41,694 nucleotides of DNA from Nemertoderma westbladi (Eukaryota > Animalia > Xenacoelomorpha), in NCBI GenBank assembly GCA_032718475.1, contig JAUCBJ010000363.1, forward strand, positions 1 through 41,694. The letters run 5' to 3'. Both the position numbers and the translations under genes were made by a program. A model generated the notes under the pieces. It was not told where the DNA came from. It was given only the letters and a program-made list of their open reading frames with translations, and searched no databases. Numbering within the stretch: position 1 is the first letter of the stretch; each line of letters begins with the position of its first letter. This document shows positions 1 through 29,515 of this stretch, piece by piece.

Positions 1-49
1 TTAAGTATAATAATCAAATTTGTCGGTATAATGATAATATTATAAATAC

Positions 50-340: not shown

Positions 341-463
341 GTAGAATAATCAAATCATGTTAAAGACTTTTATAATAACAAACGTCTGCAACCCACTTAC
401 TATATTGGGTTTTACCTATTGCGGATGCACAATGGTAACCATAGTAACCATGGCGGGGTCAAG

Positions 464-671: not shown

Positions 672-725
672 AGAGCCGTTCGGCAAATTCTTTAACATGG
701 TAGACTATGGCAGACGCTGTCTCAA

Positions 726-2516: not shown

Positions 2517-2523
2517 CTCCTCC
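748..2523. repeat. 45-bp minisatellite, about 39 units
   Basis: Consensus + strand ccggtactactaacctcctccgataggtgggagtcgatgtccgta. In the exon 4 frame it reads (EEVSSTGTDIDSHLS)n with no stop. Confidence 0.99.
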
Positions 2524-2659
2524 CGCGTCTCATCCTTGTCTCCACGAATTTTCAGTTTCCGTCTCAGCGGTGGTTTTCCATCGTCGACACGTTTTTTCGC
2601 TTTGTACTCCTCTAGAAGAACTTTCGTTTTCGCATCAACTTTAACAACAAGTTTCTTTC
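2517..2659 (-). CDS. RBM25: RBM25-like exon 4: end of RRM and charged linker
   Basis: Acceptor gttacag| at 2660 is phase 1 and joins exon 3 in frame to give GKKLVVKVDAKTKVLLEEYKAKKRVDDGKPPLRRKLKIRGDKDETREE (cf. RBM25 EKKLLVKVDAKTKAQLDEWKAKK). The 3' end is placed at candidate donor GAG|GTTAGT. If that donor is unused, the frame runs through the 45-bp repeat to TGA at 726-728. Confidence 0.9.
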
Positions 2660-5600
2660 CTGTAACAATAATATGAAATATTGATGTAAGTGTGAGTAAT
2701 CGAAATATTCTGGACGATGATGAAAATGTGTAACTTGTTCGTTTCGTTGATTATTAGCAGTTTACACACAGTGTAAATTAAATCTACTGTATTTATGTTA
2801 GTTGTGTGTGTGTTACGTAGGTCGTAGGTACTGTAGGTAGATCTGGAGAGGGCTCTTTCCGCCAATCATCAGCTGTGCTGCCTCATAATTTTACTTTGGA
2901 GTTTCATGCAATAAAATAAATTATAATAATAATAATAAAAGTTCCCACCCAGTGTGTATTATTGTATCACGGGCGTAGCGTAGCCAGGATTTATCTTGGG
3001 AAGGGCCAAACTTTTAGATATATTTCGTTGTTACCTTTCAATGTGCTATAAACTATAATAAAATTCTAATATAATATCATTCAGCACATGGATAATTCAA
3101 CCAGTTAAGTTTATAGTTAGTGTACGAGTTCAGCCGGAAGTATCATCTGTAACCAGAAGTCACGCATCCCTACATTTGAGTTCGTCATCCACGGTTATGG
3201 CACAATCCACTACGTCATTAGAACTGCCTGGCCAGATTGTAGCCCCGTAACCCTGCACCATCACCAAACCCTAGGCCATGCCAAGGTCGTCGACCCCCTC
3301 ACAGGCAGAGGGAGCTGGAGTGAAGGACTGCGAAGAGCAATCAACGCCGAATGCCCCCCAATACACACGCGAGACCCCTGTCACGCATGCCATCCCGCTT
3401 AGTGACAAGCGTTTCTGCGAGATGGCGGATTAGAATCTGGGTCTCGGTGCACCAGATGCCATCGGTGGTCGAACGGTTGGTTTGAGTGTACGAAGTCGCG
3501 TCCGCGTTAATAACGGCTATGTCAAATGAAGCGACTCGTTGGTTCACCCAGACCCCCCATGCAACCAGGTCTGCCCACACTCCCCCCACCTCACGGCCCT
3601 CTCTGGTCTCTGTCCAGGTGCCCCCGGGAGAGGGTCACCTCGCGCTCCACGCTGGAGCTGCCGACCACATCGGCGATGAGGTCCCCAAAGACCTCCCGCA
3701 CCTCATCATGGCGCTTAATAATCAACCCGCCAGACTTGCAGCTTAGAGCATTTGAGGTGGAAAATGCATCTCCACAACCTTCGCACTTCGCTGAAAGACC
3801 CGGCGGGGTGAGACCATACCTCAGGGCCAGTCCGTCCCGAAATTCATCAGGACTCAGATCTGTGTGATCTAGGGTGGATGGCTGTGCGTAAGCCATCCTC
3901 CGATCTTGTGGGATACAGCACGTTGGACAGTTCGTTAGCAGGCTGGTGAGAGCGCTGAGACTGCTGCCTCCTCTGTTGTAGAGTGTATTTGACAGCCTGC
4001 ACCATGGATTGCTCCTTGATTGCCTCCCGTAGATGCTGTTCGTGGTCGGTCACTTGAAGGGGTTGTCCAGTGCTATAAACTTGGTAATTTACGAATAGTT
4101 AGTGCACAGGATGTATTACCATCGACTGGACATGGTAGTACTCACCCCATTTACAAGCCTTTTTACACTAATAATCTCCATTTGGTCGCCATAATACATA
4201 GCCCTCAAAGGAGCAAGGAGCTAAACCTACGGATCGCTCATTAACTTACCGGCTACAGTAAAGTCGTGTAGTAAACGGATCGCTCGTTAACTTACCGGCT
4301 ACAGTAAAGTCGTGTAGTAAACGGATCGCTCGTTAACTTACCGGCTACAGTAAAGTCGTGTAGTAAACGGATCGCTCGTTAACTTACCGGCTACAGTAAA
4401 GTCGTGTAGTAAACGGATCGCTCGTTAACTTACCGGCTACAGTAAAGTCGTGTAGTAAACGGATCGCTCGTTAACTTACCGGCTACAGTAAAGTCGTGTA
4501 GTAAACGGATCGCTCGTTAACTTACCGGCTACAGTAAAGTCGTGTAGTAAACGGATCGCTCGTTAACTTACCGGTTACAGTAAAGTCGTGTAGTAAACGG
4601 ATCGCTCGTTAACTTACCGGCTACAGTAAAGTCGTGTAGTAAACGGATCGCTCGTTAACTTACCGGCTACAGTAAAGTCGTGTAGTAAACGGATCGCTCG
4701 TTAACTTACCGGCTACAGTAAAGTCGTGTAGTAAACGGATCGCTCGTTAACTTACCGGCTACAGTAAAGTCGTGTAGTAAACGGATCGCTCGTTAACTTA
4801 CCGGCTACAGTAAAGTCGTGTAGTAAACGGATCGCTCGTTAACTTACCGGCTACAGTAAAGTCGTGTAGTAAACGGATCGCTCGTTAACTTACCGGTTAC
4901 AGTAAAGTCGTGTAGTAAACGGATCGCTCGTTAACTTACCGGTTACAGTAAAGTCGTGTAGTAAACGGATCGCTCGTTAACTTACCGGCTACAGTAAAGT
5001 CGTGTAGTAAACGGATCGCTCGTTAACTTACCGGCTACAGTAAAGTCGTGTAGTAAACGGATCGCTCGTTAACTTACCGGCTACAGTAAAGTCGTGTAGT
5101 AAACGGATCGCTCGTTAACTTACCGGCTACAGTAAAGTCGTGTAGTAAACGGATCGCTCGTTAACTTACCGGCTACAGTAAAGTCGTGTAGTAAACGGAT
5201 CGCTCGTTAACTTACCGGCTACAGTAAAGTCGTGTAGTAAACGGATCGCTCGTTAACTTACCGGCTACAGTAAAGTCGTGTAGTAAACGGATCGCTCGTT
5301 AACTTACCGGCTACAGTAAAGTCGTGTAGTAAACGGATCGCTCGTTAACTTACCGGCTACAGTAAAGCCGTTCAGTAAACGGATCGCTCGTTAACTTACC
5401 GGCTACAGTAAAGCCGTTCAGTAAACGGATCGCTCGTTAACTTACCGGCTACAGTAAAGTCGTGTAGTAAACGGATCGCTCGTTAACTTACCGACTACAG
5501 TAAAGCCGTGTAGTAAACGGATCGCTCGTTAACTTACCGGCTACAGTAAAGACGTGTAGTAAACGGATCGCTCGTTAACTTACCGGCTACAGTAAAGTCG

Positions 5601-8600
5601 TGTAGTAAACGGATCGCTCGTTAACTTACCGGTTACAGTAAAGTCGTGTAGTAAACGGATCGCTCGTTAACTTACCGGCTACAGTAAAGCCGTGTAGTAA
5701 ACGGATCGCTCATTAACTTACCGGCTACAGTAAAGCCGTGTAGTAAACGGATCGCTCGTTAACTTACCGGCTACAGTAAAGCCATGTAGTAAACGGATCG
5801 CTCGTTAACTTACCGGTTACAGTAAAGTCGTGTAGTAAACGGATCGCTCGTTAACTTACCGGCTACAGTAAAGCCGTGTAGTAAACGGATCGCTCATTAA
5901 CTTACCGGCTACAGTAAAGCCGTGTAGTAAACGGATCGCTCGTTAACTTACCGGCTACAGTAAAGCCGTGTAGTAAACGGATCGCTCGTTAACTTACCGG
6001 CTACAGTAAAGCCGTGTAGTAAACGGATCGCTCGTTAACTTACCGGCTACAGTAAAGCCGTGTAGTAAACGGATCGCTCGTTAACTTACCGGTTACAGTA
6101 AAGTCGTGTAGTAAACGGATCGCTCGTTAACTTACCGGCTACAGTAAAGCCGTGTAGTAAACGGATCGCTCGTTAACTTAGCGGCTACAGTAAAGCCGTG
6201 TAGTAAACGGATCGCTCGTTAACTTAGCGGCTACAGTAAAGTCGTGTAGTAAACGGATCGCTCGTTAACTTACCGACTACAGTAAAGTCGTGTAGTAAAC
6301 GGATCGCTCGTTAACTTACCGGCTACAGTAAAGCCGTGTAGTAAACGGATCGCTCATTAACTTACCGGTAAAGTCGTGTAGTAAACGGATCGCTCGTTAA
6401 CTTACCGGCTACAGTAAAGTCATGTAGTAAACGGATCGCTCGTTAACTTACCGGCTACAGTAAAGTCGTGTAGTAAACGGATCGCTCGTTAACTTACCGA
6501 CTACAGTAAAGTCGTGTAGTAAACGGATCGCTCGTTAACTTACCGGCTACAGTAAAGCCGTGTAGTAAACGGATCGCTCGTTAACTTACCGGCTACAGTA
6601 AAGTCGGGTAGTAAACGGATCGCTCGTTAACTTACCGGCTACAGTAAAGTCGTGTAGTAAACGGATCGCTCGTTAACTTACCGGCTACAGTAAAGTCGGG
6701 TAGTAAACGGATCGCTCGTTAACTTACCGGCTACAGTAAAGCCATGTAGTAAACGGATCGCTCGTTAACTTACCGGCTACAGTAAAGCCATGTAGTAAAC
6801 GGATCGCTCGTTAACTTACCGGCTACAGTAAAGCCGTGTAGTAAACGGATCGCTCGTTAACTTACCGGCTACAGTAAAGCCATGTAGTAAACGGATCGCT
6901 CGTTAACTTACCGGCTACAGTAAAGCCATGTAGTAAACGGATCGCTCGTTAACTTACCGGCTACAGTAAAGTCGGGTAGTAAACGGATCGCTCGTTAACT
7001 TACCGGCTACAGTAAAGCCATGTAGTAAACGGATCGCTCATTAACTTACCGGTAAAGTCGTGTAGTAAACGGATCGCTCGTTAACTTACCGGCTACAGTA
7101 AAGCCATGTAGTAAACGGATCGCTCGTTAACTTACCGGCTACAGTAAAGCCATGTAGTAAACGGATCGCTCGTTAACTTACCGGCTACAGTAAAGCCGTG
7201 TAGTAAACGGATCGCTCGTTAACTTACCGGCTACAGTAAAGTCGTGTAGTAAACGGATCGCTCGTTAACTTACCGACTACAGTAAAGTCGTGTAGTAAAC
7301 GGATCGCTCGTTAACTTACCGGCTACAGTAAAGTCGTGTAGTAAACGGATCGCTCGTTAACTTACCGGCTACAGTAAAGTCGTGTAGTAAACGGATCGCT
7401 CGTTAACTTACCGGTTACAGTAAAGTCGTGTAGTAAACGGATCGCTCGTTAACTTACCGGCTACAGTAAAGTCGTGTAGTAAACGGATCGCTCGTTAACT
7501 TACCGGCTACAGTAAAGTCGTGTAGTAAACGGATCGCTCGTTAACTTACCGGCTACAGTAAAGTCGTGTAGTAAACGGATCGCTCGTTAACTTACCGGCT
7601 ACAGTAAAGTCGTGTAGTAAACGGATCGCTCATTAACTTACCGGTAAAGTCGTGTAGTAAACGGATCGCTCGTTAACTTACCGGCTACAGTAAAGTCATG
7701 TAGTAAACGGATCGCTCGTTAACTTACCGGCTACAGTAAAGTCGTGTAGTAAACGGATCGCTCGTTAACTTACCGACTACAGTAAAGTCGTGTAGTAAAC
7801 GGATCGCTCGTTAACTTACCGGCTACAGTAAAGTCGTGTAGTAAACGGATCGCTCGTTAACTTACCGGCTACAGTAAAGCCGTGTAGTAAACGGATCGCT
7901 CGTTAACTTACCGGCTACAGTAAAGTCGTGTAGTAAACGGATCGCTCGTTAACTTACCGGCTACAGTAAAGTCGTGTAGTAAACGGATCGCTCGTTAACT
8001 TACCGGCTACAGTAAAGTCGTGTAGTAAACGGATCGCTCGTTAACTTACCGGCTACAGTAAAGTCGTGTAGTAAACGGATCGCTCGTTAACTTACCGGCT
8101 ACAGTAAAGCCGTGTAGTAAACGGATCGCTCGTTAACTTACCGGCTACAGTAAAGTCGTGTAGTAAACGGATCGCTCGTTAACTTACCGGCTACAGTAAA
8201 GCCGTGTAGTAAATGGATCGCTCGGTAACTCACCGGTAAAGCCGTGTAGTAAACGGATCGCTCGTTAACTTACCGGCTACAGTAAAGTCGTGTAGTAAAC
8301 GGATCGCTCGTTAACTTACCGGCTACAGTAAAGTCGTGTAGTAAACGGATCGCTCGTTAACTTACCGGTAAAGTCGTGTAGTAAACGGATCGCTCGTTAA
8401 CTTACCGGCTACAGTAAAGCCGTGTAGTAAACGGATCGCTCGTTAACTTACCGGCTACAGTAAAGTCGTGTAGTAAACGGATCGCTCGTTAACTTACCGG
8501 CTACAGTAAAGTCGTGTAGTAAACGGATCGCTCGTTAACTTACCGGCTACAGTAAAGCCGTGTAGTAAACGGATCGCTCGTTAACTTACCGGCTACAGTA

Positions 8601-11600
8601 AAGCCGTGTAGTAAATGGATCGCTCGGTAACTCACCGGTAAAGCCGTGTAGTAAACGGATCGCTTGTTAACTTACCGGCTACAGTAAAGCCGTGTAGTAA
8701 ACGGATCGCTCGTTAACTTACCGGCTACAGTAAAGTCGTGTAGTAAACGGATCGCTCGTTAACTTACCGGCTACAGTAAAGCCGTGTAGTAAACGGATCG
8801 CTCGTTAACTTACCGGCTACAGTAAAGTCGTGTAGCAAACGGATCGCTCATTAACTTACCGGCTACAGTAAAGCCGTGTAGTAAACGGATCGCTCGTTAA
8901 CTTACCGGCTACAGTAAAGTCGTGTAGTAAACGGATCGCTCGTTAACTTACCGGCTACAGTAAAGCCGTGTAGTAAACGGATCGCTCGTTAACTTACCGG
9001 CTACAGTAAAGCCGTGTAGTAAACGGATCGCTCGTTAACTTACCGGCTACAGTAAAGCCGTGTAGTAAACGGATCGCTCGTTAACTTACCGGCTACAGTA
9101 AAGCCGTGTAGTAAACGGATCGCTCGGTAACTTACCGGCTACAGTAAAGTCGTGTAGTAAACGGATCGCTCGTTAACTTACCGGCTACAGTAAAGTCGTG
9201 TAGTAAACGGATCGCTCGTTAACTTACCGGCTACAGTAAAGCCGTGTAGTAAACGGATCGCTCGGTAACTTACCGGCTACAGTAAAGTCGTGTAGTAAAC
9301 GGATCGCTCGTTAACTTACCGGCTACAGTAAAGCCGTGTAGTAAACGGATCGCTCGTTAACTTACCGGCTACAGTAAAGCCGTGTAGTAAACGGATCGCT
9401 CGGTAACTTACCGGCTACAGTAAAGTCGTGTAGTAAACGGATCGCTCGTTAACTTACCGGCTACAGTAAAGTCGTGTAGTAAACGGATCGCTCATTAACT
9501 TACCGGCTACAGTAAAGCCGTGTAGTAAACGGATCGCTCGTTAACTTACCGGCTACAGTAAAGTCGTGTAGTAAACGGATCGCTCATTAACTTACCGGCT
9601 ACAGTAAAGCCGTGTAGTAAACGGATCGCTCGTTAACTTACCGGCTACAGTAAAGCCGTGTAGTAAACGGATCGCTCGGTAACTTACCGGTACAGTAAAG
9701 TCGTGTAGTAAACGGATCGCTCGTTAACTTACCGGCTACAGTAAAGTCGTGTAGTAAACGGATCGCTCATTAACTTACCGGCTACAGTAAAGTCGTGTAG
9801 TAAACGGATCGCTCGGTAACTTACCGGCTACAGTAAAGTCGTGTAGTAAACGGATCGCTCGTTAACTTACCGGCTACAGTAAAGTCGTGTAGTAAACGGA
9901 TCGCTCGTTAACTTACCGGCTACAGTAAAGTCGTGTAGTAAACGGATCGCTCATTAACTTACCGGCTACAGTAAAGCCGTGTAGTAAACGGATCGCTTGT
10001 TAACTTACCGGCTACAGTAAAGCCGTGTAGTAAACGGATCGCTCGTTAACTTACCGGCTACAGTAAAGCCGTGTAGTAAACGGATCGCTCATTAACTTAC
10101 CGGTAAAGCCGTGTAGTAAATGGATCGCTCGGTAACTCACCGGTAAAGCCGTGTAGTAAACGGATCGCTCGTTAACTTACCGGCTACAGTAAAGTCGTGT
10201 AGTAAACGGATCGCTCGTTAACTTACCGGTAAAGTCGTGTAGTAAACGGATCGCTCGTTAACTTACCGGCTACAGTAAAGCCGTGTAGTAAACGGATCGC
10301 TCGTTAACTTACCGGCTACAGTAAAGTCGTGTAGTAAACGGATCGCTTGTTAACTTACCGGCTACAGTAAAGCCGTGTAGTAAACGGATCGCTCGTTAAC
10401 TTACCGGCTACAGTAAAGCCGTGTAGTAAACGGATCGCTCATTAACTTACCGGTAAAGCCGTGTAGTAAACGGATCGCTCATTAACTTACCGGCTACAGT
10501 AAAGTCGTGTAGTAAACGGATCGCTCGTTAACTTACCGGCTACAGTAAAGCCGTGTAGTAAACGGATCGCTCATTAACTTACCGGCTACAGTAAAGTCGT
10601 GTAGTAAACGGATCGCTCGTTAACTTACCGGTTACAGTAAAGTCGTGTAGTAAACGGATCGCTCGTTAACTTACCGGCTACAGTAAAGCCGTGTAGTAAA
10701 CGGATCGCTCGTTAACTTACCGGCTACAGTAAAGTCGTGTAGTAAACGGATCGCTTGTTAACTTACCGGCTACAGTAAAGCCGTGTAGTAAACGGATCGC
10801 TCGTTAACTTACCGGCTACAGTAAAGCCGTGTAGTAAACGGATCGCTCATTAACTTACCGGTAAAGCCGTGTAGTAAACGGATCGCTCATTAACTTACCG
10901 GCTACAGTAAAGTCGTGTAGTAAACGGATCGCTCGTTAACTTACCGGCTACAGTAAAGCCGTGTAGTAAACGGATCGCTCATTAACTTACCGGCTACAGT
11001 AAAGTCGTGTAGTAAACGGATCGCTCGTTAACTTACCGGTTACAGTAAAGTCGTGTAGTAAACGGATCGCTCGTTAACTTACCGGCTACAGTAAAGCCGT
11101 GTAGTAAACGGATCGCTCATTAACTTACCGGCTACAGTAAAGCCGTGTAGTAAACGGATCGCTCGTTAACTTACCGGCTACAGTAAAGCCATGTAGTAAA
11201 CGGATCGCTCGTTAACTTACCGGTTACAGTAAAGTCGTGTAGTAAACGGATCGCTCGTTAACTTACCGGCTACAGTAAAGCCGTGTAGTAAACGGATCGC
11301 TCATTAACTTACCGGCTACAGTAAAGCCGTGTAGTAAACGGATCGCTCGTTAACTTACCGGCTACAGTAAAGCCGTGTAGTAAACGGATCGCTCGTTAAC
11401 TTACCGGCTACAGTAAAGCCGTGTAGTAAACGGATCGCTCGTTAACTTACCGGCTACAGTAAAGCCGTGTAGTAAACGGATCGCTCGTTAACTTACCGGT
11501 TACAGTAAAGTCGTGTAGTAAACGGATCGCTCGTTAACTTACCGGCTACAGTAAAGCCGTGTAGTAAACGGATCGCTCGTTAACTTAGCGGCTACAGTAA

Positions 11601-14600
11601 AGCCGTGTAGTAAACGGATCGCTCGTTAACTTAGCGGCTACAGTAAAGTCGTGTAGTAAACGGATCGCTCGTTAACTTACCGACTACAGTAAAGTCGTGT
11701 AGTAAACGGATCGCTCGTTAACTTACCGGCTACAGTAAAGCCGTGTAGTAAACGGATCGCTCATTAACTTACCGGTAAAGTCGTGTAGTAAACGGATCGC
11801 TCGTTAACTTACCGGCTACAGTAAAGTCATGTAGTAAACGGATCGCTCGTTAACTTACCGGCTACAGTAAAGTCGTGTAGTAAACGGATCGCTCGTTAAC
11901 TTACCGACTACAGTAAAGTCGTGTAGTAAACGGATCGCTCGTTAACTTACCGGCTACAGTAAAGCCGTGTAGTAAACGGATCGCTCGTTAACTTACCGGC
12001 TACAGTAAAGTCGGGTAGTAAACGGATCGCTCGTTAACTTACCGGCTACAGTAAAGTCGTGTAGTAAACGGATCGCTCGTTAACTTACCGGCTACAGTAA
12101 AGTCGGGTAGTAAACGGATCGCTCGTTAACTTACCGGCTACAGTAAAGCCATGTAGTAAACGGATCGCTCGTTAACTTACCGGCTACAGTAAAGCCATGT
12201 AGTAAACGGATCGCTCGTTAACTTACCGGCTACAGTAAAGCCGTGTAGTAAACGGATCGCTCGTTAACTTACCGGCTACAGTAAAGCCATGTAGTAAACG
12301 GATCGCTCGTTAACTTACCGGCTACAGTAAAGCCATGTAGTAAACGGATCGCTCGTTAACTTACCGGCTACAGTAAAGTCGGGTAGTAAACGGATCGCTC
12401 GTTAACTTACCGGCTACAGTAAAGCCATGTAGTAAACGGATCGCTCATTAACTTACCGGTAAAGTCGTGTAGTAAACGGATCGCTCGTTAACTTACCGGC
12501 TACAGTAAAGCCATGTAGTAAACGGATCGCTCGTTAACTTACCGGCTACAGTAAAGCCATGTAGTAAACGGATCGCTCGTTAACTTACCGGCTACAGTAA
12601 AGCCGTGTAGTAAACGGATCGCTCGTTAACTTACCGGCTACAGTAAAGTCGTGTAGTAAACGGATCGCTCGTTAACTTACCGACTACAGTAAAGTCGTGT
12701 AGTAAACGGATCGCTCGTTAACTTACCGGCTACAGTAAAGTCGTGTAGTAAACGGATCGCTCGTTAACTTACCGGCTACAGTAAAGTCGTGTAGTAAACG
12801 GATCGCTCGTTAACTTACCGGTTACAGTAAAGTCGTGTAGTAAACGGATCGCTCGTTAACTTACCGGCTACAGTAAAGTCGTGTAGTAAACGGATCGCTC
12901 GTTAACTTACCGGCTACAGTAAAGTCGTGTAGTAAACGGATCGCTCGTTAACTTACCGGCTACAGTAAAGTCGTGTAGTAAACGGATCGCTCGTTAACTT
13001 ACCGGCTACAGTAAAGTCGTGTAGTAAACGGATCGCTCATTAACTTACCGGTAAAGTCGTGTAGTAAACGGATCGCTCGTTAACTTACCGGCTACAGTAA
13101 AGTCATGTAGTAAACGGATCGCTCGTTAACTTACCGGCTACAGTAAAGTCGTGTAGTAAACGGATCGCTCGTTAACTTACCGACTACAGTAAAGTCGTGT
13201 AGTAAACGGATCGCTCGTTAACTTACCGGCTACAGTAAAGTCGTGTAGTAAACGGATCGCTCGTTAACTTACCGGCTACAGTAAAGCCGTGTAGTAAACG
13301 GATCGCTCGTTAACTTACCGGCTACAGTAAAGTCGTGTAGTAAACGGATCGCTCGTTAACTTACCGGCTACAGTAAAGTCGTGTAGTAAACGGATCGCTC
13401 GTTAACTTACCGGCTACAGTAAAGTCGTGTAGTAAACGGATCGCTCGTTAACTTACCGGCTACAGTAAAGTCGTGTAGTAAACGGATCGCTCGTTAACTT
13501 ACCGGCTACAGTAAAGCCGTGTAGTAAACGGATCGCTCGTTAACTTACCGGCTACAGTAAAGTCGTGTAGTAAACGGATCGCTCGTTAACTTACCGGCTA
13601 CAGTAAAGCCGTGTAGTAAATGGATCGCTCGGTAACTCACCGGTAAAGCCGTGTAGTAAACGGATCGCTCGTTAACTTACCGGCTACAGTAAAGTCGTGT
13701 AGTAAACGGATCGCTCGTTAACTTACCGGCTACAGTAAAGTCGTGTAGTAAACGGATCGCTCGTTAACTTACCGGTAAAGTCGTGTAGTAAACGGATCGC
13801 TCGTTAACTTACCGGCTACAGTAAAGCCGTGTAGTAAACGGATCGCTCGTTAACTTACCGGCTACAGTAAAGTCGTGTAGTAAACGGATCGCTCGTTAAC
13901 TTACCGGCTACAGTAAAGTCGTGTAGTAAACGGATCGCTCGTTAACTTACCGGCTACAGTAAAGCCGTGTAGTAAACGGATCGCTCGTTAACTTACCGGC
14001 TACAGTAAAGCCGTGTAGTAAATGGATCGCTCGGTAACTCACCGGTAAAGCCGTGTAGTAAACGGATCGCTTGTTAACTTACCGGCTACAGTAAAGCCGT
14101 GTAGTAAACGGATCGCTCGTTAACTTACCGGCTACAGTAAAGTCGTGTAGTAAACGGATCGCTCGTTAACTTACCGGCTACAGTAAAGCCGTGTAGTAAA
14201 CGGATCGCTCGTTAACTTACCGGCTACAGTAAAGTCGTGTAGCAAACGGATCGCTCATTAACTTACCGGCTACAGTAAAGCCGTGTAGTAAACGGATCGC
14301 TCGTTAACTTACCGGCTACAGTAAAGTCGTGTAGTAAACGGATCGCTCGTTAACTTACCGGCTACAGTAAAGCCGTGTAGTAAACGGATCGCTCGTTAAC
14401 TTACCGGCTACAGTAAAGCCGTGTAGTAAACGGATCGCTCGTTAACTTACCGGCTACAGTAAAGCCGTGTAGTAAACGGATCGCTCGTTAACTTACCGGC
14501 TACAGTAAAGCCGTGTAGTAAACGGATCGCTCGGTAACTTACCGGCTACAGTAAAGTCGTGTAGTAAACGGATCGCTCGTTAACTTACCGGCTACAGTAA

Positions 14601-17600: not shown

Positions 17601-20600
17601 GTCGTGTAGTAAACGGATCGCTCGTTAACTTACCGGCTACAGTAAAGTCGTGTAGTAAACGGATCGCTCGTTAACTTACCGGCTACAGTAAAGTCGTGTA
17701 GTAAACGGATCGCTCGTTAACTTACCGGCTACAGTAAAGTCGTGTAGTAAACGGATCGCTCGTTAACTTACCGGCTACAGTAAAGCCGTGTAGTAAACGG
17801 ATCGCTCGTTAACTTACCGGCTACAGTAAAGTCGTGTAGTAAACGGATCGCTCGTTAACTTACCGGCTACAGTAAAGTCGTGTAGTAAACGGATCGCTCA
17901 TTAACTTACCGGCTACAGTAAAGTCGTGTAGTAAACGGATCGCTCGGTAACTTACCGGCTACAGTAAAGTCGTGTAGTAAACGGATCGCTCGTTAACTTA
18001 CCGGCTACAGTAAAGTCGTGTAGTAAACGGATCGCTCGTTAACTTACCGGCTACAGTAAAGTCGTGTAGTAAACGGATCGCTCATTAACTTACCGGCTAC
18101 AGTAAAGCCGTGTAGTAAACGGATCGCTTGTTAACTTACCGGCTACAGTAAAGCCGTGTAGTAAACGGATCGCTCGTTAACTTACCGGCTACAGTAAAGC
18201 CGTGTAGTAAACGGATCGCTCATTAACTTACCGGTAAAGCCGTGTAGTAAACGGATCGCTCATTAACTTACCGGCTACAGTAAAGCCGTGTAGTAAACGG
18301 ATCGCTTGTTAACTTACCGGCTACAGTAAAGCCGTGTAGTAAACGGATCGCTCGTTAACTTACCGGCTACAGTAAAGCCGTGTAGTAAACGGATCGCTCA
18401 TTAACTTACCGGTAAAGCCGTGTAGTAAACGGATCGCTCGTTAACTTACCGGCTACAGTAAAGCCGTGTAGTAAACGGATCGCTCATTAACTTACCGGTA
18501 AAGCCGTGTAGTAAACGGATCGCTCATTAACTTACCGACTACAGTAAAGTCGTGTAGTAAACGGATCGCTCGTTAACTTACCGGCTACAGTAAAGCCGTG
18601 TAGTAAACGGATCGCTCATTAACTTACCGACTACAGTAAAGTCGTGTAGTAAACGGATCGCTCGTTAACTTACCGGCTACAGTAAAGCCGTGTAGTAAAC
18701 GGATCGCTCATTAACTTACCGACTACAGTAAAGCCGTGTAGTAAACGGATCGCTCGTTAACTTACCGGCTACAGTAAAGCCGTGTAGTAAATGGATCGCT
18801 CGGTAACTCACCGGTAAAGCCGTGTAGTAAACGGATCGCTCGTTAACTTACCGGCTACAGTAAAGTCGTGTAGTAAACGGATCGCTCGTTAACTTACCGG
18901 CTACAGTAAAGTCGTGTAGTAAACGGATCGCTCGTTAACTTACCGGTAAAGTCGTGTAGTAAACGGATCGCTCGTTAACTTACCGGCTACAGTAAAGCCG
19001 TGTAGTAAACGGATCGCTCGTTAACTTACCGGCTACAGTAAAGTCGTGTAGTAAACGGATCGCTCGTTAACTTACCGGCTACAGTAAAGTCGTGTAGTAA
19101 ACGGATCGCTCGTTAACTTACCGGCTACAGTAAAGCCGTGTAGTAAACGGATCGCTCGTTAACTTACCGGCTACAGTAAAGCCGTGTAGTAAATGGATCG
19201 CTCGGTAACTCACCGGTAAAGCCGTGTAGTAAACGGATCGCTTGTTAACTTACCGGCTACAGTAAAGCCGTGTAGTAAACGGATCGCTCGTTAACTTACC
19301 GGCTACAGTAAAGTCGTGTAGTAAACGGATCGCTCGTTAACTTACCGGCTACAGTAAAGCCGTGTAGTAAACGGATCGCTCGTTAACTTACCGGCTACAG
19401 TAAAGTCGTGTAGCAAACGGATCGCTCATTAACTTACCGGCTACAGTAAAGCCGTGTAGTAAACGGATCGCTCGTTAACTTACCGGCTACAGTAAAGTCG
19501 TGTAGTAAACGGATCGCTCGTTAACTTACCGGCTACAGTAAAGCCGTGTAGTAAACGGATCGCTCGTTAACTTACCGGCTACAGTAAAGCCGTGTAGTAA
19601 ACGGATCGCTCGTTAACTTACCGGCTACAGTAAAGCCGTGTAGTAAACGGATCGCTCGTTAACTTACCGGCTACAGTAAAGCCGTGTAGTAAACGGATCG
19701 CTCGGTAACTTACCGGCTACAGTAAAGTCGTGTAGTAAACGGATCGCTCGTTAACTTACCGGCTACAGTAAAGTCGTGTAGTAAACGGATCGCTCGTTAA
19801 CTTACCGGCTACAGTAAAGCCGTGTAGTAAACGGATCGCTCGGTAACTTACCGGCTACAGTAAAGTCGTGTAGTAAACGGATCGCTCGTTAACTTACCGG
19901 CTACAGTAAAGCCGTGTAGTAAACGGATCGCTCGTTAACTTACCGGCTACAGTAAAGCCGTGTAGTAAACGGATCGCTCGGTAACTTACCGGCTACAGTA
20001 AAGTCGTGTAGTAAACGGATCGCTCGTTAACTTACCGGCTACAGTAAAGTCGTGTAGTAAACGGATCGCTCATTAACTTACCGGCTACAGTAAAGCCGTG
20101 TAGTAAACGGATCGCTCGTTAACTTACCGGCTACAGTAAAGTCGTGTAGTAAACGGATCGCTCATTAACTTACCGGCTACAGTAAAGCCGTGTAGTAAAC
20201 GGATCGCTCGTTAACTTACCGGCTACAGTAAAGCCGTGTAGTAAACGGATCGCTCGGTAACTTACCGGCTACAGTAAAGTCGTGTAGTAAACGGATCGCT
20301 CGTTAACTTACCGGCTACAGTAAAGTCGTGTAGTAAACGGATCGCTCATTAACTTACCGGCTACAGTAAAGTCGTGTAGTAAACGGATCGCTCGGTAACT
20401 TACCGGCTACAGTAAAGTCGTGTAGTAAACGGATCGCTCGTTAACTTACCGGCTACAGTAAAGTCGTGTAGTAAACGGATCGCTCGTTAACTTACCGGCT
20501 ACAGTAAAGTCGTGTAGTAAACGGATCGCTCATTAACTTACCGGCTACAGTAAAGCCGTGTAGTAAACGGATCGCTTGTTAACTTACCGGCTACAGTAAA

Positions 20601-23600
20601 GCCGTGTAGTAAACGGATCGCTCGTTAACTTACCGGCTACAGTAAAGCCGTGTAGTAAACGGATCGCTCATTAACTTACCGGTAAAGCCGTGTAGTAAAC
20701 GGATCGCTCATTAACTTACCGGCTACAGTAAAGCCGTGTAGTAAACGGATCGCTTGTTAACTTACCGGCTACAGTAAAGCCGTGTAGTAAACGGATCGCT
20801 CGTTAACTTACCGGCTACAGTAAAGCCGTGTAGTAAACGGATCGCTCATTAACTTACCGGTAAAGCCGTGTAGTAAACGGATCGCTCGTTAACTTACCGG
20901 CTACAGTAAAGCCGTGTAGTAAACGGATCGCTCATTAACTTACCGGTAAAGCCGTGTAGTAAACGGATCGCTCATTAACTTACCGACTACAGTAAAGTCG
21001 TGTAGTAAACGGATCGCTCGTTAACTTACCGGCTACAGTAAAGCCGTGTAGTAAACGGATCGCTCATTAACTTACCGACTACAGTAAAGTCGTGTAGTAA
21101 ACGGATCGCTCGTTAACTTACCGGCTACAGTAAAGCCGTGTAGTAAACGGATCGCTCATTAACTTACCGACTACAGTAAAGTCGTGTAGTAAACGGATCG
21201 CTCGTTAACTTACCGGCTACAGTAAAGCCGTGTAGTAAACGGATCGCTCATTAACTTACCGACTACAGTAAAGTCGTGTAGTAAACGGATCGCTCATTAA
21301 CTTACCGGCTACAGTAAAGCCGTGTAGTAAACGGATCGCTCGTTAACTTACCGGCTACAGTAAAGTCGTGTAGTAAACGGATCGCTCGTTAACTTACCGG
21401 CTACAGTAAAGTCGTGTAGTAAACGGATCGCTCGTTAACTTACCGACTACAGTAAAGTCGTGTAGTAAACGGATCGCTCGTTAACTTACCGGCTACAGTA
21501 AAGCCGTGTAGTAAACGGATCGCTCGTTAACTTACCGGCTACAGTAAAGCCGTGTAGTAAACGGATCGCTCGTTAACTTACCGGCTACAGTAAAGTCGTG
21601 TAGTAAACGGATCGCTCGTTAACTTACCGGCTACAGTAAAGTCGTGTAGTAAACGGATCGCTCGTTAACTTACCGGCTACAGTAAAGCCGTGTAGTAAAC
21701 GGATCGCTCGTTAACTTACCGGCTACAGTAAAGTCGTGTAGTAAACGGATCGCTCGTTAACTTACCGGCTACAGTAAAGTCGTGTAGTAAACGGATCGCT
21801 CGTTAACTTACCGGCTACAGTAAAGTCGTGTAGTAAACGGATCGCTCGTTAACTTACCGGCTACAGTAAAGTCGTGTAGTAAACGGATCGCTCGTTAACT
21901 TACCGGCTACAGTAAAGCCGTGTAGTAAACGGATCGCTCGTTAACTTACCGGCTACAGTAAAGTCGTGTAGTAAACGGATCGCTCGTTAACTTACCGGCT
22001 ACAGTAAAGCCGTGTAGTAAATGGATCGCTCGGTAACTCACCGGTAAAGCCGTGTAGTAAACGGATCGCTCGTTAACTTACCGGCTACAGTAAAGTCGTG
22101 TAGTAAACGGATCGCTCGTTAACTTACCGGCTACAGTAAAGTCGTGTAGTAAACGGATCGCTCGTTAACTTACCGGTAAAGTCGTGTAGTAAACGGATCG
22201 CTCGTTAACTTACCGGCTACAGTAAAGCCGTGTAGTAAACGGATCGCTCGTTAACTTACCGGCTACAGTAAAGTCGTGTAGTAAACGGATCGCTCGTTAA
22301 CTTACCGGCTACAGTAAAGTCGTGTAGTAAACGGATCGCTCGTTAACTTACCGGCTACAGTAAAGCCGTGTAGTAAACGGATCGCTCGTTAACTTACCGG
22401 CTACAGTAAAGCCGTGTAGTAAATGGATCGCTCGGTAACTCACCGGTAAAGCCGTGTAGTAAACGGATCGCTTGTTAACTTACCGGCTACAGTAAAGCCG
22501 TGTAGTAAACGGATCGCTCGTTAACTTACCGGCTACAGTAAAGTCGTGTAGTAAACGGATCGCTCGTTAACTTACCGGCTACAGTAAAGCCGTGTAGTAA
22601 ACGGATCGCTCGTTAACTTACCGGCTACAGTAAAGTCGTGTAGCAAACGGATCGCTCATTAACTTACCGGCTACAGTAAAGCCGTGTAGTAAACGGATCG
22701 CTCGTTAACTTACCGGCTACAGTAAAGTCGTGTAGTAAACGGATCGCTCGTTAACTTACCGGCTACAGTAAAGCCGTGTAGTAAACGGATCGCTCGTTAA
22801 CTTACCGGCTACAGTAAAGCCGTGTAGTAAACGGATCGCTCGTTAACTTACCGGCTACAGTAAAGCCGTGTAGTAAACGGATCGCTCGTTAACTTACCGG
22901 CTACAGTAAAGCCGTGTAGTAAACGGATCGCTCGGTAACTTACCGGCTACAGTAAAGTCGTGTAGTAAACGGATCGCTCGTTAACTTACCGGCTACAGTA
23001 AAGTCGTGTAGTAAACGGATCGCTCGTTAACTTACCGGCTACAGTAAAGCCGTGTAGTAAACGGATCGCTCGGTAACTTACCGGCTACAGTAAAGTCGTG
23101 TAGTAAACGGATCGCTCGTTAACTTACCGGCTACAGTAAAGCCGTGTAGTAAACGGATCGCTCGTTAACTTACCGGCTACAGTAAAGCCGTGTAGTAAAC
23201 GGATCGCTCGGTAACTTACCGGCTACAGTAAAGTCGTGTAGTAAACGGATCGCTCGTTAACTTACCGGCTACAGTAAAGTCGTGTAGTAAACGGATCGCT
23301 CATTAACTTACCGGCTACAGTAAAGCCGTGTAGTAAACGGATCGCTCGTTAACTTACCGGCTACAGTAAAGTCGTGTAGTAAACGGATCGCTCATTAACT
23401 TACCGGCTACAGTAAAGCCGTGTAGTAAACGGATCGCTCGTTAACTTACCGGCTACAGTAAAGCCGTGTAGTAAACGGATCGCTCGGTAACTTACCGGCT
23501 ACAGTAAAGTCGTGTAGTAAACGGATCGCTCGTTAACTTACCGGCTACAGTAAAGTCGTGTAGTAAACGGATCGCTCATTAACTTACCGGCTACAGTAAA

Positions 23601-26600
23601 GTCGTGTAGTAAACGGATCGCTCGGTAACTTACCGGCTACAGTAAAGTCGTGTAGTAAACGGATCGCTCGTTAACTTACCGGCTACAGTAAAGTCGTGTA
23701 GTAAACGGATCGCTCGTTAACTTACCGGCTACAGTAAAGTCGTGTAGTAAACGGATCGCTCATTAACTTACCGGCTACAGTAAAGCCGTGTAGTAAACGG
23801 ATCGCTTGTTAACTTACCGGCTACAGTAAAGCCGTGTAGTAAACGGATCGCTCGTTAACTTACCGGCTACAGTAAAGCCGTGTAGTAAACGGATCGCTCA
23901 TTAACTTACCGGTAAAGCCGTGTAGTAAACGGATCGCTCATTAACTTACCGGCTACAGTAAAGCCGTGTAGTAAACGGATCGCTTGTTAACTTACCGGCT
24001 ACAGTAAAGCCGTGTAGTAAACGGATCGCTCGTTAACTTACCGGCTACAGTAAAGCCGTGTAGTAAACGGATCGCTCATTAACTTACCGGTAAAGCCGTG
24101 TAGTAAACGGATCGCTCGTTAACTTACCGGCTACAGTAAAGCCGTGTAGTAAACGGATCGCTCATTAACTTACCGGTAAAGCCGTGTAGTAAACGGATCG
24201 CTCATTAACTTACCGACTACAGTAAAGTCGTGTAGTAAACGGATCGCTCGTTAACTTACCGGCTACAGTAAAGCCGTGTAGTAAACGGATCGCTCATTAA
24301 CTTACCGACTACAGTAAAGTCGTGTAGTAAACGGATCGCTCGTTAACTTACCGGCTACAGTAAAGCCGTGTAGTAAACGGATCGCTCATTAACTTACCGA
24401 CTACAGTAAAGCCGTGTAGTAAACGGATCGCTCGTTAACTTACCGGCTACAGTAAAGCCGTGTAGTAAATGGATCGCTCGGTAACTCACCGGTAAAGCCG
24501 TGTAGTAAACGGATCGCTCGTTAACTTACCGGCTACAGTAAAGTCGTGTAGTAAACGGATCGCTCGTTAACTTACCGGCTACAGTAAAGTCGTGTAGTAA
24601 ACGGATCGCTCGTTAACTTACCGGTAAAGTCGTGTAGTAAACGGATCGCTCGTTAACTTACCGGCTACAGTAAAGCCGTGTAGTAAACGGATCGCTCGTT
24701 AACTTACCGGCTACAGTAAAGTCGTGTAGTAAACGGATCGCTCGTTAACTTACCGGCTACAGTAAAGTCGTGTAGTAAACGGATCGCTCGTTAACTTACC
24801 GGCTACAGTAAAGCCGTGTAGTAAACGGATCGCTCGTTAACTTACCGGCTACAGTAAAGCCGTGTAGTAAATGGATCGCTCGGTAACTCACCGGTAAAGC
24901 CGTGTAGTAAACGGATCGCTTGTTAACTTACCGGCTACAGTAAAGCCGTGTAGTAAACGGATCGCTCGTTAACTTACCGGCTACAGTAAAGTCGTGTAGT
25001 AAACGGATCGCTCGTTAACTTACCGGCTACAGTAAAGCCGTGTAGTAAACGGATCGCTCGTTAACTTACCGGCTACAGTAAAGTCGTGTAGCAAACGGAT
25101 CGCTCATTAACTTACCGGCTACAGTAAAGCCGTGTAGTAAACGGATCGCTCGTTAACTTACCGGCTACAGTAAAGTCGTGTAGTAAACGGATCGCTCGTT
25201 AACTTACCGGCTACAGTAAAGCCGTGTAGTAAACGGATCGCTCGTTAACTTACCGGCTACAGTAAAGCCGTGTAGTAAACGGATCGCTCGTTAACTTACC
25301 GGCTACAGTAAAGCCGTGTAGTAAACGGATCGCTCGTTAACTTACCGGCTACAGTAAAGCCGTGTAGTAAACGGATCGCTCGGTAACTTACCGGCTACAG
25401 TAAAGTCGTGTAGTAAACGGATCGCTCGTTAACTTACCGGCTACAGTAAAGTCGTGTAGTAAACGGATCGCTCGTTAACTTACCGGCTACAGTAAAGCCG
25501 TGTAGTAAACGGATCGCTCGGTAACTTACCGGCTACAGTAAAGTCGTGTAGTAAACGGATCGCTCGTTAACTTACCGGCTACAGTAAAGCCGTGTAGTAA
25601 ACGGATCGCTCGTTAACTTACCGGCTACAGTAAAGCCGTGTAGTAAACGGATCGCTCGGTAACTTACCGGCTACAGTAAAGTCGTGTAGTAAACGGATCG
25701 CTCGTTAACTTACCGGCTACAGTAAAGTCGTGTAGTAAACGGATCGCTCATTAACTTACCGGCTACAGTAAAGCCGTGTAGTAAACGGATCGCTCGTTAA
25801 CTTACCGGCTACAGTAAAGTCGTGTAGTAAACGGATCGCTCATTAACTTACCGGCTACAGTAAAGCCGTGTAGTAAACGGATCGCTCGTTAACTTACCGG
25901 CTACAGTAAAGCCGTGTAGTAAACGGATCGCTCGGTAACTTACCGGCTACAGTAAAGTCGTGTAGTAAACGGATCGCTCGTTAACTTACCGGCTACAGTA
26001 AAGTCGTGTAGTAAACGGATCGCTCATTAACTTACCGGCTACAGTAAAGTCGTGTAGTAAACGGATCGCTCGGTAACTTACCGGCTACAGTAAAGTCGTG
26101 TAGTAAACGGATCGCTCGTTAACTTACCGGCTACAGTAAAGTCGTGTAGTAAACGGATCGCTCGTTAACTTACCGGCTACAGTAAAGTCGTGTAGTAAAC
26201 GGATCGCTCATTAACTTACCGGCTACAGTAAAGCCGTGTAGTAAACGGATCGCTTGTTAACTTACCGGCTACAGTAAAGCCGTGTAGTAAACGGATCGCT
26301 CGTTAACTTACCGGCTACAGTAAAGCCGTGTAGTAAACGGATCGCTCATTAACTTACCGGTAAAGCCGTGTAGTAAACGGATCGCTCATTAACTTACCGG
26401 CTACAGTAAAGCCGTGTAGTAAACGGATCGCTTGTTAACTTACCGGCTACAGTAAAGCCGTGTAGTAAACGGATCGCTCGTTAACTTACCGGCTACAGTA
26501 AAGCCGTGTAGTAAACGGATCGCTCATTAACTTACCGGTAAAGCCGTGTAGTAAACGGATCGCTCGTTAACTTACCGGCTACAGTAAAGCCGTGTAGTAA

Positions 26601-28931
26601 ACGGATCGCTCATTAACTTACCGGTAAAGCCGTGTAGTAAACGGATCGCTCATTAACTTACCGACTACAGTAAAGTCGTGTAGTAAACGGATCGCTCGTT
26701 AACTTACCGGCTACAGTAAAGCCGTGTAGTAAACGGATCGCTCATTAACTTACCGACTACAGTAAAGTCGTGTAGTAAACGGATCGCTCGTTAACTTACC
26801 GGCTACAGTAAAGCCGTGTAGTAAACGGATCGCTCATTAACTTACCGACTACAGTAAAGTCGTGTAGTAAACGGATCGCTCGTTAACTTACCGGCTACAG
26901 TAAAGTCGTGTAGTAAACGGATCGCTCGTTAACTTACCGGCTACAGTAAAGCCGTGTAGTAAACGGATCGCTCGTTAACTTACCGGCTACAGTAAAGTCG
27001 TGTAGTAAACGGATCGCTCGTTAACTTACCGGCTACAGTAAAGTCGTGTAGTAAACGGATCGCTCGTTAACTTACCGGCTACAGTAAAGTCGTGTAGTAA
27101 ACGGATCGCTCGTTAACTTACCGGCTACAGTAAAGCCGTGTAGTAAACGGATCGCTCGTTAACTTACCGGCTACAGTAAAGTCGTGTAGTAAACGGATCG
27201 CTCGGTAACTTACCGGCTACAGTAAAGTCGTGTAGTAAACGGATCGCTCGTTAACTTACCGGCTACAGTAAAGCCGTGTAGTAAACGGATCGCTCGTTAA
27301 CTTACCGGCTACAGTAAAGTCGTGTAGTAAACGGATCGCTCGGTAACTTACCGGCTACAGTAAAGTCGTGTAGTAAACGGATCGCTCGTTAACTTACCGG
27401 CTACAGTAAAGTCGTGTAGTAAACGGATCGCTCGTTAACTTACCGGCTACAGTAAAGTCGTGTAGTAAACGGATCGCTCATTAACTTACCGGCTACAGTA
27501 AAGCCGTGTAGTAAACGGATCGCTTGTTAACTTACCGGCTACAGTAAAGCCGTGTAGTAAACGGATCGCTCGTTAACTTACCGGCTACAGTAAAGCCGTG
27601 TAGTAAACGGATCGCTCATTAACTTACCGGTAAAGCCGTGTAGTAAACGGATCGCTCATTAACTTACCGGCTACAGTAAAGCCGTGTAGTAAACGGATCG
27701 CTTGTTAACTTACCGGCTACAGTAAAGCCGTGTAGTAAACGGATCGCTCGTTAACTTACCGGCTACAGTAAAGCCGTGTAGTAAACGGATCGCTCATTAA
27801 CTTACCGGTAAAGCCGTGTAGTAAACGGATCGCTCGTTAACTTACCGGCTACAGTAAAGCCGTGTAGTAAACGGATCGCTCATTAACTTACCGGTAAAGC
27901 CGTGTAGTAAACGGATCGCTCATTAACTTACCGACTACAGTAAAGTCGTGTAGTAAACGGATCGCTCGTTAACTTACCGGCTACAGTAAAGCCGTGTAGT
28001 AAACGGATCGCTCATTAACTTACCGACTACAGTAAAGTCGTGTAGTAAACGGATCGCTCGTTAACTTACCGGCTACAGTAAAGCCGTGTAGTAAACGGAT
28101 CGCTCGTTAACTTACCGGTAAAGCCGTGTAGTAAACGGATCGCTCGTTAACTTACCGGCTACAGTAAAGCCGTGTAGTAAACGGATCGCTCATTAACTTA
28201 CCGGTAAAGCCGTGTAGTAAACGGATCGCTCATTAACTTACCGACTACAGTAAAGTCGTGTAGTAAACGGATCGCTCGTTAACTTACCGGCTACAGTAAA
28301 GCCGTGTAGTAAACGGATCGCTCATTAACTTACCGACTACAGTAAAGTCGTGTAGTAAACGGATCGCTCATTAACTTACCGACTACAGTAAAGTCGTGTA
28401 GTAAACGGATCGCTCATTAACTTACCGACTACAGTAAAGTCGTGTAGTAAACGGATCGCTCGTTAACTTACCGGCTACAGTAAAGTCGTGTAGTAAACGG
28501 ATCGCTCGTTAACTTACCGGCTACAGTAAAGCCGTGTAGTAAACGGATCGCTCGTTAACTTACCGGCTACAGTAAAGTCGTGTAGTAAACGGATCGCTCG
28601 TTAACTTACCGGCTACAGTAAAGTCGTGTAGTAAACGGATCGCTCGTTAACTTACCGGCTACAGTAAAGTCGTGTAGTAAACGGATCGCTCGTTAACTTA
28701 CCGGCTACAGTAAAGCCGTGTAGTAAACGGATCGCTCGTTAACTTACCGGCTACAGTAAAGCCGTGTAGTAAACGGATCGCTCGTTAACTTACCGGCTAC
28801 AGTAAAGTCGTGTAGTAAACGGATCGCTCGTTAACTTACCGGCTACAGTAAAGTCGTGTAGTAAACGGATCGCTCGTTAACTTACCGGCTACAGTAAAGC
28901 CGTGTAGTAAACGGATCGCTCGTTAACTTAC
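2660..28931 (-). other. 26,272-bp GT-AG intron splitting the RBM25 RRM
   Basis: GTAAGT at 28931 and CAG ending at 2660. Removing it restores contiguous RBM25-like sequence (LHDFTVAG-KKLVVKVDAKTK) with matching phase. Confidence 0.9.
3218..4053 (-). mobile_element. Degenerate 3' fragment of a CRE-like non-LTR retrotransposon (zinc knuckle plus restriction-like endonuclease)
   Basis: LSPDEFRDGLALRYG...C-x2-C...NALSCKSGGLIIKRHDEVRE, then ADLVAWGVW...FDIAV and LLFAVLHSSSLCL*GGRRPWHGLGFGDGAGL. Typical RLE-element C-terminus, broken by frameshifts and in-frame TGA stops. Confidence 0.8.
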
Positions 28932-28969
28932 CGGCTACAGTAAAGTCGTGTAGCAAACGGATCGCTCGT
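4229..28969. repeat. 46-bp satellite, about 540 units, derived from the exon 3 donor junction
   Basis: Consensus + strand acggatcgctcgttaacttaccggctacagtaaagtcgtgtagtaa. A small set of recurring point variants and a 40-bp variant lacking ctacag; no unique spacers. Confidence 0.99.
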
Positions 28970-29067
28970 AGAGACGCCTCGGGATCGGCGTATTCGCAGA
29001 ACCCGAATGCTTGGAGTTTACCATTGGCGCCCTGGACGCGTTTCCAATTCAATACGTAACCGCAAGT
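28932..29067 (-). CDS. RBM25: RBM25-like exon 3: RRM core (not in the ORF track)
   Basis: Acceptor atttcgcttag|, 136 nt (45 codons + 1). Translates to TCGYVLNWKRVQGANGKLQAFGFCEYADPEASLRAIRLLHDFTVA(G), very close to RBM25 KCGLVLSWKRVQGASGKLQAFGFCEYKEPESTLRALRLLHDL. Phase-1 donor CCG|GTAAGT. Its last 38 nt are the terminal unit of the 46-bp satellite. Confidence 0.95.
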
Positions 29068-29515
29068 CTAAGCGAAATACATAATGTAAATGAAATAATT
29101 AATTTATACCAAGTTAATATTAATCGATATGTAAAAATAATAAAAGCTAGTCTTATAACACATAACAACGTTATGTTTTTATTTAGAACGCCTTTGCTTT
29201 AGTTTAGTTCACTTCAATGTATGTATGCATAAACGACACACAAAATCAATTGAGAAAAATGCTCGAGGTTTATCCAAATTTACCATTATCGCAATAGAAA
29301 CAAGTTAAAGTGTCACCTACGCTACACATAGCTGGTCATTGTATGGAAACAATTTTGGTCTAATTCGAACGACAATTTTTTTGTAATTCGTTAACATCAA
29401 ACCAATCCTACAACTAAATCGCAAATCGTGGATTCCTTATTGCCATCGTATGTCACAATTATGAAACTCAGACTCTCATCCCTAATATTAGACGTATTTA
29501 GACGAGAGGACTTAC

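Follow-up and report, generated by a model that had tools for sequence, protein, structure and literature searches.

Tandem copies of the exon 3 donor in an expressed RBM25 gene of Nemertoderma westbladi, probably a tolerated expansion

The arrangement of splice donors in tandem repeats is, as a class, already published for human F7, human ABCA7 and the lancelet mirages. In human F7, a 37-bp VNTR in intron 7 (IVS7) offers 5–9 donors, of which only the most upstream is used (PMC1557585), and in human ABCA7 a 25-bp VNTR in intron 18 reaches up to 10,678 bp, or ~427 units (PMC5954066; PMC13747324). The lancelet 'mirage' minisatellites occur in Adh3, troponin C, globins and PGBD5 and have been proposed as a source of new intron positions (PMC3087553; PMC3902484); normal splicing is undisturbed by them and the first donor is used (PMC3087553). 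In chicken, the RNA of the LL2R repeat concentrates spliceosomal snRNAs (bioRxiv 10.64898/2026.03.19.712899). Here we describe an array in RBM25, which is the homologue of Snu71 and associates with U1, if weakly, as an earlier note on this DNA had stated and as PMC5648754 bears out. New in this locus are the size of the array, the host gene and the position of the intron, which lies 14 nt off the usual animal site.

Host gene and transcript

The window, the whole stretch of 41,694 nucleotides of N. westbladi DNA that was analysed, carries RBM25, with all the parts of the gene described below, on its minus strand. The first coding exon in the window (30167–30359) has an open frame with the ATG at 30359, and a contig from run X4 extends the transcript at least to 30448. 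Exon 2 with the start of the RRM (29516–29715) was assigned from its translation and from the spliced X4 joints 29067–29516 and 29715–30167, both with GT-AG ends, and exon 3 with the RRM core (28932–29067, 136 nt) from 108 homologues and a gapless alignment of an X4 contig. Exon 4 (2517–2659, 143 nt), covered by the X4 contig over 2516–2658, ends at the donor GAG/GTTAGT, and past it the contig continues in sequence outside the window. The later exons, in which the C-terminal PWI domain of the RBM25 family would be expected, fall beyond the window as well. Together the four exons form a 224-codon frame with zero stops. The assignment to RBM25 made in the earlier note held, as 108 of 115 candidates matched, with identities to RBM25 proteins of up to 80–85% for exon 3 and of ~46–61% over 135–204 aligned residues for the RBM25-type N-terminal RRM (best 15 of the 108 fetched proteins). 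A close homologue was not found among the fetched proteins, and the RRM_1 match to exon 3 was weak (E 7e-4, under the curated cut-off).

In a 660-nt contig from run X4, the 136 nt of exon 3 abut the 143 nt of exon 4 with zero bases between them. X4 was catalogued as 'DNA?' by guess only; we treat it as RNA because exons are covered and GT-AG introns skipped. The contig is unbranched (depth 889.9) and contains the junction from 28932 to 2659, as expected from the earlier note, without an extra 46 nt and without an extra CCG. Since the first donor (28932) is thereby joined straight to exon 4, RBM25 is expressed and correctly spliced. The X4 contig and the DNA depth agree with a transcribed, spliced, single-copy locus, and a pseudogene is ruled out by the open frame, the spliced RNA and the single-copy depth across the exons. 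As X4 is a third sample, separate from the DNA samples, and its array may be short, this junction does not speak for the 544-copy allele. The X4 depths over three array bins (427.8, 649.4 and 218.8) equal exactly the share of the spliced contig, and therefore no array-derived X4 contig was among those aligned; elsewhere in the gene, X4 variants of depth 4.9 and 9.9 were retained next to 761.7. Contigs prove presence, not absence, rare variants drop out of them, and little can be learnt about nascent RNA from a library that leaves introns uncovered; the missing array contig is not counted as proof.

Anatomy and instability of the arrays

Intron 3 measures 26.3 kb and opens with 544 tandem units, mostly of 46 bp. 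TRF placed the array at 4229–28969 (period 46, 544.3 copies), and 540 of the 544 units retain a GT donor, four having lost it, which matches the ~540-copy, 24.7-kb array of RBM25's own donor described in the earlier note; 24.7 kb is an assembled length. Read on the minus strand, it consists of 544 full units, the true exon end included, and a 13-nt tail; there are 30 unit types, and 493 units have 46 bp, 49 have 40 bp and 2 have 45 bp. The unit combines 38 exon 3 bases with 8 intron bases, and the first copy that the transcript meets is the real exon 3 end, whose final 38 nt (28969–28932) supply the exon part; this boundary, proposed before, was confirmed by the spliced contig. The true intron 3 donor, CCG/GTAAGT (28924–28934), is the one used in the 660-nt X4 contig. 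Among the intact donors, 498 read CCG/GTAAGT, 30 TCG/GTAAGT and 12 CCG/GTGAGT. With its head-to-tail units and a first copy across the real exon-intron boundary, the array is by layout a donor-spanning minisatellite, and it shows high depth in the DNA runs X1–X3. Five units folded no better than shuffles (z 0.33), and metagenome contigs gave no match to the unit junction.

The rest of intron 3 (1,569 nt, 2660–4228, acceptor at 2660) contains dispersed repeats and shows multi-copy depth in the DNA runs. A frame at 3594–4049 is, by its motifs, presumably a degraded retroelement piece; no Pfam match was found in this remainder, for which an atlas gave only unnamed eukaryotic clusters, and no Rfam match was found in positions 1–6000.

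A second donor-spanning array, overlooked in the earlier note, lies at 748–2523 and contains 39.5 copies of a 45-bp unit with 7 exon nt and 38 intron nt. Intron 4 opens with these copies of its own donor (GAG/GTTAGT, 36 times), and the RNA likewise uses the first of them, via which the X4 contig leaves exon 4. Over ~600 codons the 45-bp array stays in frame without a stop; read-through of exon 4 into it as a coding repeat is rejected for the RNA seen, which departs at the first donor. Donor arrays open two of the gene's four introns, a hint at some bias, and the window holds three more minisatellites outside RBM25.

The intron 3 array looks young and unstable. Its units are 97.0% identical, exact nested duplications span 109 units (4,953 bp), 75 units and 53 units, and 87% of the array sits in exact repeats of at least 500 bp. 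Variable sites made up 3/9 of the donor positions vs 11/37 elsewhere in the unit (p = 1.0; 15 alleles, little power), and in the second array 2/9 vs 13/36. The ratio of summed to single-copy depth was 512–1101 in X1, 31–41 in X2 and 44–85 in X3, and 1,416–3,338 for the simulated assembled array, a crude comparison, as contig depth does not equal copy number and X2 and X3, from one sample, disagree ~7-fold on the 45-bp array. With the same proviso, the depth ratios of samples S1 and S2 are roughly 10–25-fold apart, which would put one sample at hundreds of copies and a second at tens.

Explanations for the array

Probably the array is a tolerated expansion of the exon 3 end and its donor in an expressed RBM25, and the neutral expansion that the earlier note had kept as a fallback fits best of the readings it offered. 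The array may have begun when a short segment over the exon-intron boundary was duplicated without damage to the exon, to be amplified by slippage and unequal exchange, with the expansion likely driven by unequal crossing-over. The array is likely tolerated because splicing takes the first donor and the other copies leave as intron. The most upstream donor would win, as tested in human F7, and a product of an internal donor, with a stop within 16–21 codons as computed for each of donors 2–12, would probably undergo nonsense-mediated decay. The array would cost the gene extra intron length and bring no new function. Decay of stop-bearing products is not the whole reason for the dominance of the first donor, because the 45-bp array is in frame and stop-free.

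That the array is real and its length overstated by the assembly is unlikely. The assembled 24.7 kb is nevertheless not proven, given the large share of exact repeats, including the perfect 4,953-bp duplication; the X1 depth falls under the simulated value, and neither array end is bridged by a contig with 31 letters on each side, the best reaching 24 nt in. Against this, the X1 depth corresponds to hundreds of copies, within ~2–3x of the assembled figure if the array is on a window-like haplotype, the assembly may itself derive from the X1 sample, and nested duplications are normal in satellites.

We consider it improbable that long alleles load U1 snRNPs, slow the removal of intron 3 and so lower RBM25 or raise exon 4 skipping, without being adaptive. 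The array presents 43.7 donors per 2 kb vs 'more than 5' in LL2R (bioRxiv 10.64898/2026.03.19.712899), and by analogy ABCA7 may serve as a counterpoint to tolerance, since there a long donor-containing array does alter splicing of the next exon: skipping of exon 19 rises 3.2-fold with array length, and splicing makes use of one internal donor (PMC5954066). However, the X4 contig holds exon 4, joined correctly, and, unlike LL2R, most units bear an acceptor-like CTGTAG (481 copies).

Going further, array length could act as a dial on RBM25: long alleles would load hundreds of U1 snRNPs (at ~8x the donor density of LL2R), form a local condensate and send part of the transcript into internal-donor products with a stop, a means for RBM25 to sense its own activity, and duplication of the junction might also explain the intron's unusual position. 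We give this combination little credence.

A selected autoregulation or U1 decoy, in which the level of RBM25 or U1 shifts splicing to internal donors or the array titrates U1, is very unlikely. RBM25 is implicated in alternative splicing besides being U1-associated (PMC5648754), and the related factor RBM39 is reported to autoregulate via a poison exon (PMC10477243). Internal-donor products would moreover stay hidden in steady-state RNA because of their early stops. However, the donor bases show no sign of selection among the 15 alleles, the array looks young and apparently varies at least tenfold in length, and it is not seen at the same donor in other animals among the 80 loci compared. One or two alternative donors would be enough for a feedback switch, which has no need of 540. 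The U1 pool of a cell, roughly a million in human cells, also far exceeds the few hundred sites that each nascent transcript from a single locus would offer. There is no evidence for a U1 decoy or sensor role, and the earlier note's proposal of a decoy, sponge or autoregulatory sensor is not sustained by RNA that uses the first donor, donor bases that are not spared and a copy number that seems so variable. Its further proposal, protection against premature cleavage, finds no support in the sequence, as neither AATAAA nor ATTAAA was found in the array or in the remaining 1,569 nt of the intron. A literature search gave no report of an RBM25 intronic tandem repeat or satellite, and for RBM25 autoregulation no RBM25-specific study among the matches listed.

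A division of every unit into a mini-intron of 43 nt and a microexon of 3 nt (GTAAGT...CTGTAG/CCG/), with the intron removed piecewise or alanine codons added, is hardly credible: CTGTAG does stand three bases before the donor in 481 units, but the RNA junction has no extra bases, the same AG is ignored in the true exon, and the lower size limit for animal introns usually lies around or above 43 nt.

Comparison with known systems

Among 80 RBM25 loci of other, distant organisms, many of them short or cDNA, none had an array at the intron 3 donor, and none of 72 anchored loci had a GT at the window's intron 3 position. By eye, ~5–6 of 10 bases agree between the ends of the intron and those of the exons beside it, a likeness partly imposed by the splice consensus; it was not accepted as evidence that the intron arose from a tandemly duplicated proto-splice site.

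Compared with ABCA7, the largest of the published cases considered (~427 units in 10.7 kb), the 540 donors in an assembled 24.7 kb extend the range of donor arrays. Should long and short alleles prove to segregate within a species, its heterozygotes would test first-donor choice against hundreds of identical competitors and show whether splicing is slowed, or U1 gathered, where pseudo-donors are dense. With 38 coding bases common to array and exon, the end of the RRM exon could also be rewritten by unequal exchange; exon alleles differ at one synonymous base at an array-covered site, and the window's exon 3 differs from the commonest unit by one synonymous base. Exon 3 has further variants at 29023 and 29041. 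The array would become surprising only with proof that RBM25 responds to its length or is subject to feedback through it.

In RBM25 the first unit crosses the exon-intron junction as in F7, the later units are identical pseudo-donors and the most upstream donor is used (PMC1557585), whereas the RBM25 array has 540 donors instead of 5–9 and its unit is mostly exon (38/46 nt). The lancelet mirages, from an invertebrate, likewise repeat exon-intron boundaries in tandem at several places in a gene, and their length is unstable, as that of the RBM25 array seems to be, but their clusters have 2–7 copies each, a range that does not include Adh3. Like the RBM25 array, LL2R is transcribed, repeated in tandem and dense in predicted donors; it is a ~160-kb non-coding unit with a donor excess and demonstrated snRNP accumulation, whereas the RBM25 array is the spliced-out intron of a coding gene. 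ABCA7 shares with RBM25 an array that begins at the donor, hundreds of copies and a premature stop upon internal-donor use (predicted in RBM25). Its length is highly variable, as rough depth suggests for RBM25, and its effect of length on splicing is demonstrated; unlike the RBM25 unit, the ABCA7 unit starts at the GT of the intron start, and the RBM25 array is 2.3x longer in bases.

The RBM25 locus and its repeats

A search with exon 3 of the minus-strand gene (29067-28932) gave 115 candidates, of which 108 were relatives, the named ones mostly RBM25, with identities of up to 80-85% and none of them close. Exon 3 forms a 224-codon open frame jointly with the exons at 30359-30167 and 29715-29516 and with exon 4 (2659-2517), which was also seen in a spliced contig, and the remaining exons fall beyond the window. 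The earlier note regarded RBM25 as the counterpart of yeast Snu71 associated with U1 snRNP, in agreement with passages of PMC5648754 that describe a Snu71 homologue with weak human U1 snRNP binding and an implication in alternative splicing.

For the array opening intron 3 (4229-28969), Tandem Repeats Finder reported a period of 46 and 544.3 copies. Read on the minus strand, it resolves into 544 full units, representing 30 types, plus a 13-nt tail. The basic unit is composed of 38 terminal exon nt and 8 intron nt; unit lengths are 46 bp (n=493), 40 bp (n=49) or 45 bp (n=2), with a mean identity of 97.0% among the 46-bp units. The GT donor is retained in 540 of the 544, and the unit that is transcribed first coincides with the real exon 3 end, in line with the earlier claim of about 540 copies of the RBM25 donor junction. 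Nested inside the array are exact duplications of 109 units (4,953 bp), 75 units and 53 units, and 87% of its length falls within exact repeats of 500 bp or longer. A second, 45-bp donor-spanning repeat opens intron 4 (748-2523; 39.5 copies), starting 7 nt inside exon 4, whose donor occurs 36 times within the repeat; as it is in frame and stop-free for about 600 codons, a gene predictor could misread it as a coding repeat. Introns 1 and 2 (451 and 448 nt) are without an array.

Three further minisatellites lie outside the gene, so arrays are locally common. One has ten 46-bp copies (39423-39904), each with the donor-like site CCG|GTATGT on the plus strand, and no exon was identified ahead of it; the other two, of 68 bp (34654-35159) and 37 bp (36626-37804), stand either side of a broken reverse-transcriptase element (about 35224-36707; RVT_1), and a second such fragment was found at 40665-41648 (RVT_1, E 1e-16). 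Upstream of the gene, nested inverted repeats (31629-31715 and 32312-32392; 32400-33280) look foldback- or MITE-like by eye. Near the far end of the intron 3 array, a multi-copy degraded piece (3254-4116; minus-strand frame 3594-4049) encodes an RHD motif together with a Cys/His cluster, features known from non-LTR retrotransposons with a restriction-like endonuclease; Pfam had no match to this piece and the atlas yielded unnamed clusters only. An adjacent intronic dispersed repeat (3055-3253) matches abundant contigs of the sequencing run X4, with depths as high as about 5,160, which continue into other sequence, and copies elsewhere are therefore strongly transcribed.

Sequencing support and array length

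Six public runs were listed, of which four contain part of the window (X1 from sample S1, X2 and X3 from sample S2, X4 from a third sample) and none has a recorded RNA label. The array sequence is deep in the three DNA runs X1-X3 from two samples. Its summed depth relative to single-copy depth was 512-1101 in X1, 31-41 in X2 and 44-85 in X3, compared to 1,416-3,338 when simulated from the window in the same bins, a crude ratio since contig depth is not copy number and the values of X2 and X3 for the 45-bp array lie about 7-fold apart. The figures point to an array of hundreds of copies in S1 and of tens of copies in S2; X1 may represent the assembly's own sample. No contig record bridged the array ends by the 31-letter rule, the deepest entry reaching 24 nt. 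The array is real and its exact assembled length unproven; that the assembly overstates the length is rather unlikely. At 2688-2755, both X1 and X3 depart from the window sequence at their full single-copy depth, with several small gaps, which reflects either allelic difference or misassembly at this point.

Donor use and possible function

X4 covers exons only, with introns 1 and 2 missing between their GT-AG ends, and therefore behaves as spliced cDNA. A 660-nt contig of this run (depth 889.9) has a gap-free alignment that starts at 29067, ends at the first donor and resumes in exon 4. Its coordinates accommodate exon 3 (136 nt) and exon 4 (143 nt) with zero nt between them, which shows that splicing takes place at the first donor; this result comes from one contig of one run, from a third sample whose array may be short. 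The earlier note had set 28932 against internal donors for the junction to 2659, and the contig joins the first donor directly. X4 shares four exon variants with S2, and two sites in exon 4 set it apart from X1 and X3. At the exon 3 end it matches the commonest array unit in all 26 aligned exon bases, while the window differs by one synonymous base at 28954, where X4 has the array consensus and the window's base occurs in five internal units; exchange between exon and array is a possible explanation for this sequence pattern. Use of internal donors 2-12 of intron 3 is predicted to lead to a stop within 16-21 codons each. The same 660-nt X4 contig exits exon 4 at the first donor of the 45-bp array before continuing into other sequence, and as internal-donor products of intron 4 would lack a premature stop, first-donor dominance is not solely due to decay.

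The intron 3 array is a real, unusually large donor-spanning minisatellite of an expressed splicing-factor gene; most likely it is tolerated, given that splicing takes place at the first donor. In ABCA7 intron 18, a 25-bp unit beginning at the donor is repeated up to about 427 times (10,678 bp), with one internal donor in low-level use and higher next-exon skipping in long alleles (PMC5954066, in part); for RBM25, a non-adaptive effect of array length appears unlikely. A selected feedback or decoy function is highly improbable: variable sites account for 3/9 donor positions (-3 to +6) versus 11/37 elsewhere (p = 1.0, a test of low power with 15 alleles), and for 2/9 versus 13/36 in the second array. 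RNA folding of five array units was no better than that of shuffles. Pseudo-donors in long introns are thought, in the portion of PMC3826338 consulted, to let U1 suppress premature cleavage signals; neither AATAAA nor ATTAAA occurs in the array or the rest of intron 3, leaving no canonical signal for such suppression, and the U1-mediated protection suggested earlier is not supported.

Comparison with other loci and known donor arrays

An array at the donor is absent from all of the best 80 of 98 confirmed metagenome RBM25 loci. In 72 anchored loci, many of them near-duplicates and hence not independent counts, GT at the window gene's intron 3 position was found in none; 33 have their reading broken at a GT that lies downstream of that donor (28932/28931) by 14 nt, 36 read through and 3 were unclassified. 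The intron 3 position is therefore uncommon, and the window gene is without the +14 intron. Mirages have been suggested to give rise to new intron positions (excerpts of PMC3087553); the present data provide no link between the young array and the shift in intron position.

Our literature search found no such array in RBM25. In human F7 intron 7, a 37-bp junction-spanning unit provides 5-9 identical donors, of which the most upstream alone is used (PMC1557585, in part), and lancelet mirages are exon-intron boundary duplicates of variable length in several genes with normal splicing (parts of PMC3087553 and PMC3902484). In chicken, spliceosomal snRNAs are concentrated by the LL2R repeat RNA, whose density of predicted donors exceeds 5 per 2 kb, according to sections of a preprint (bioRxiv 10.64898/2026.03.19.712899); the RBM25 array has 43.7 donors per 2 kb, but its acceptor-like sites are dense as well, at 38.9 per 2 kb.
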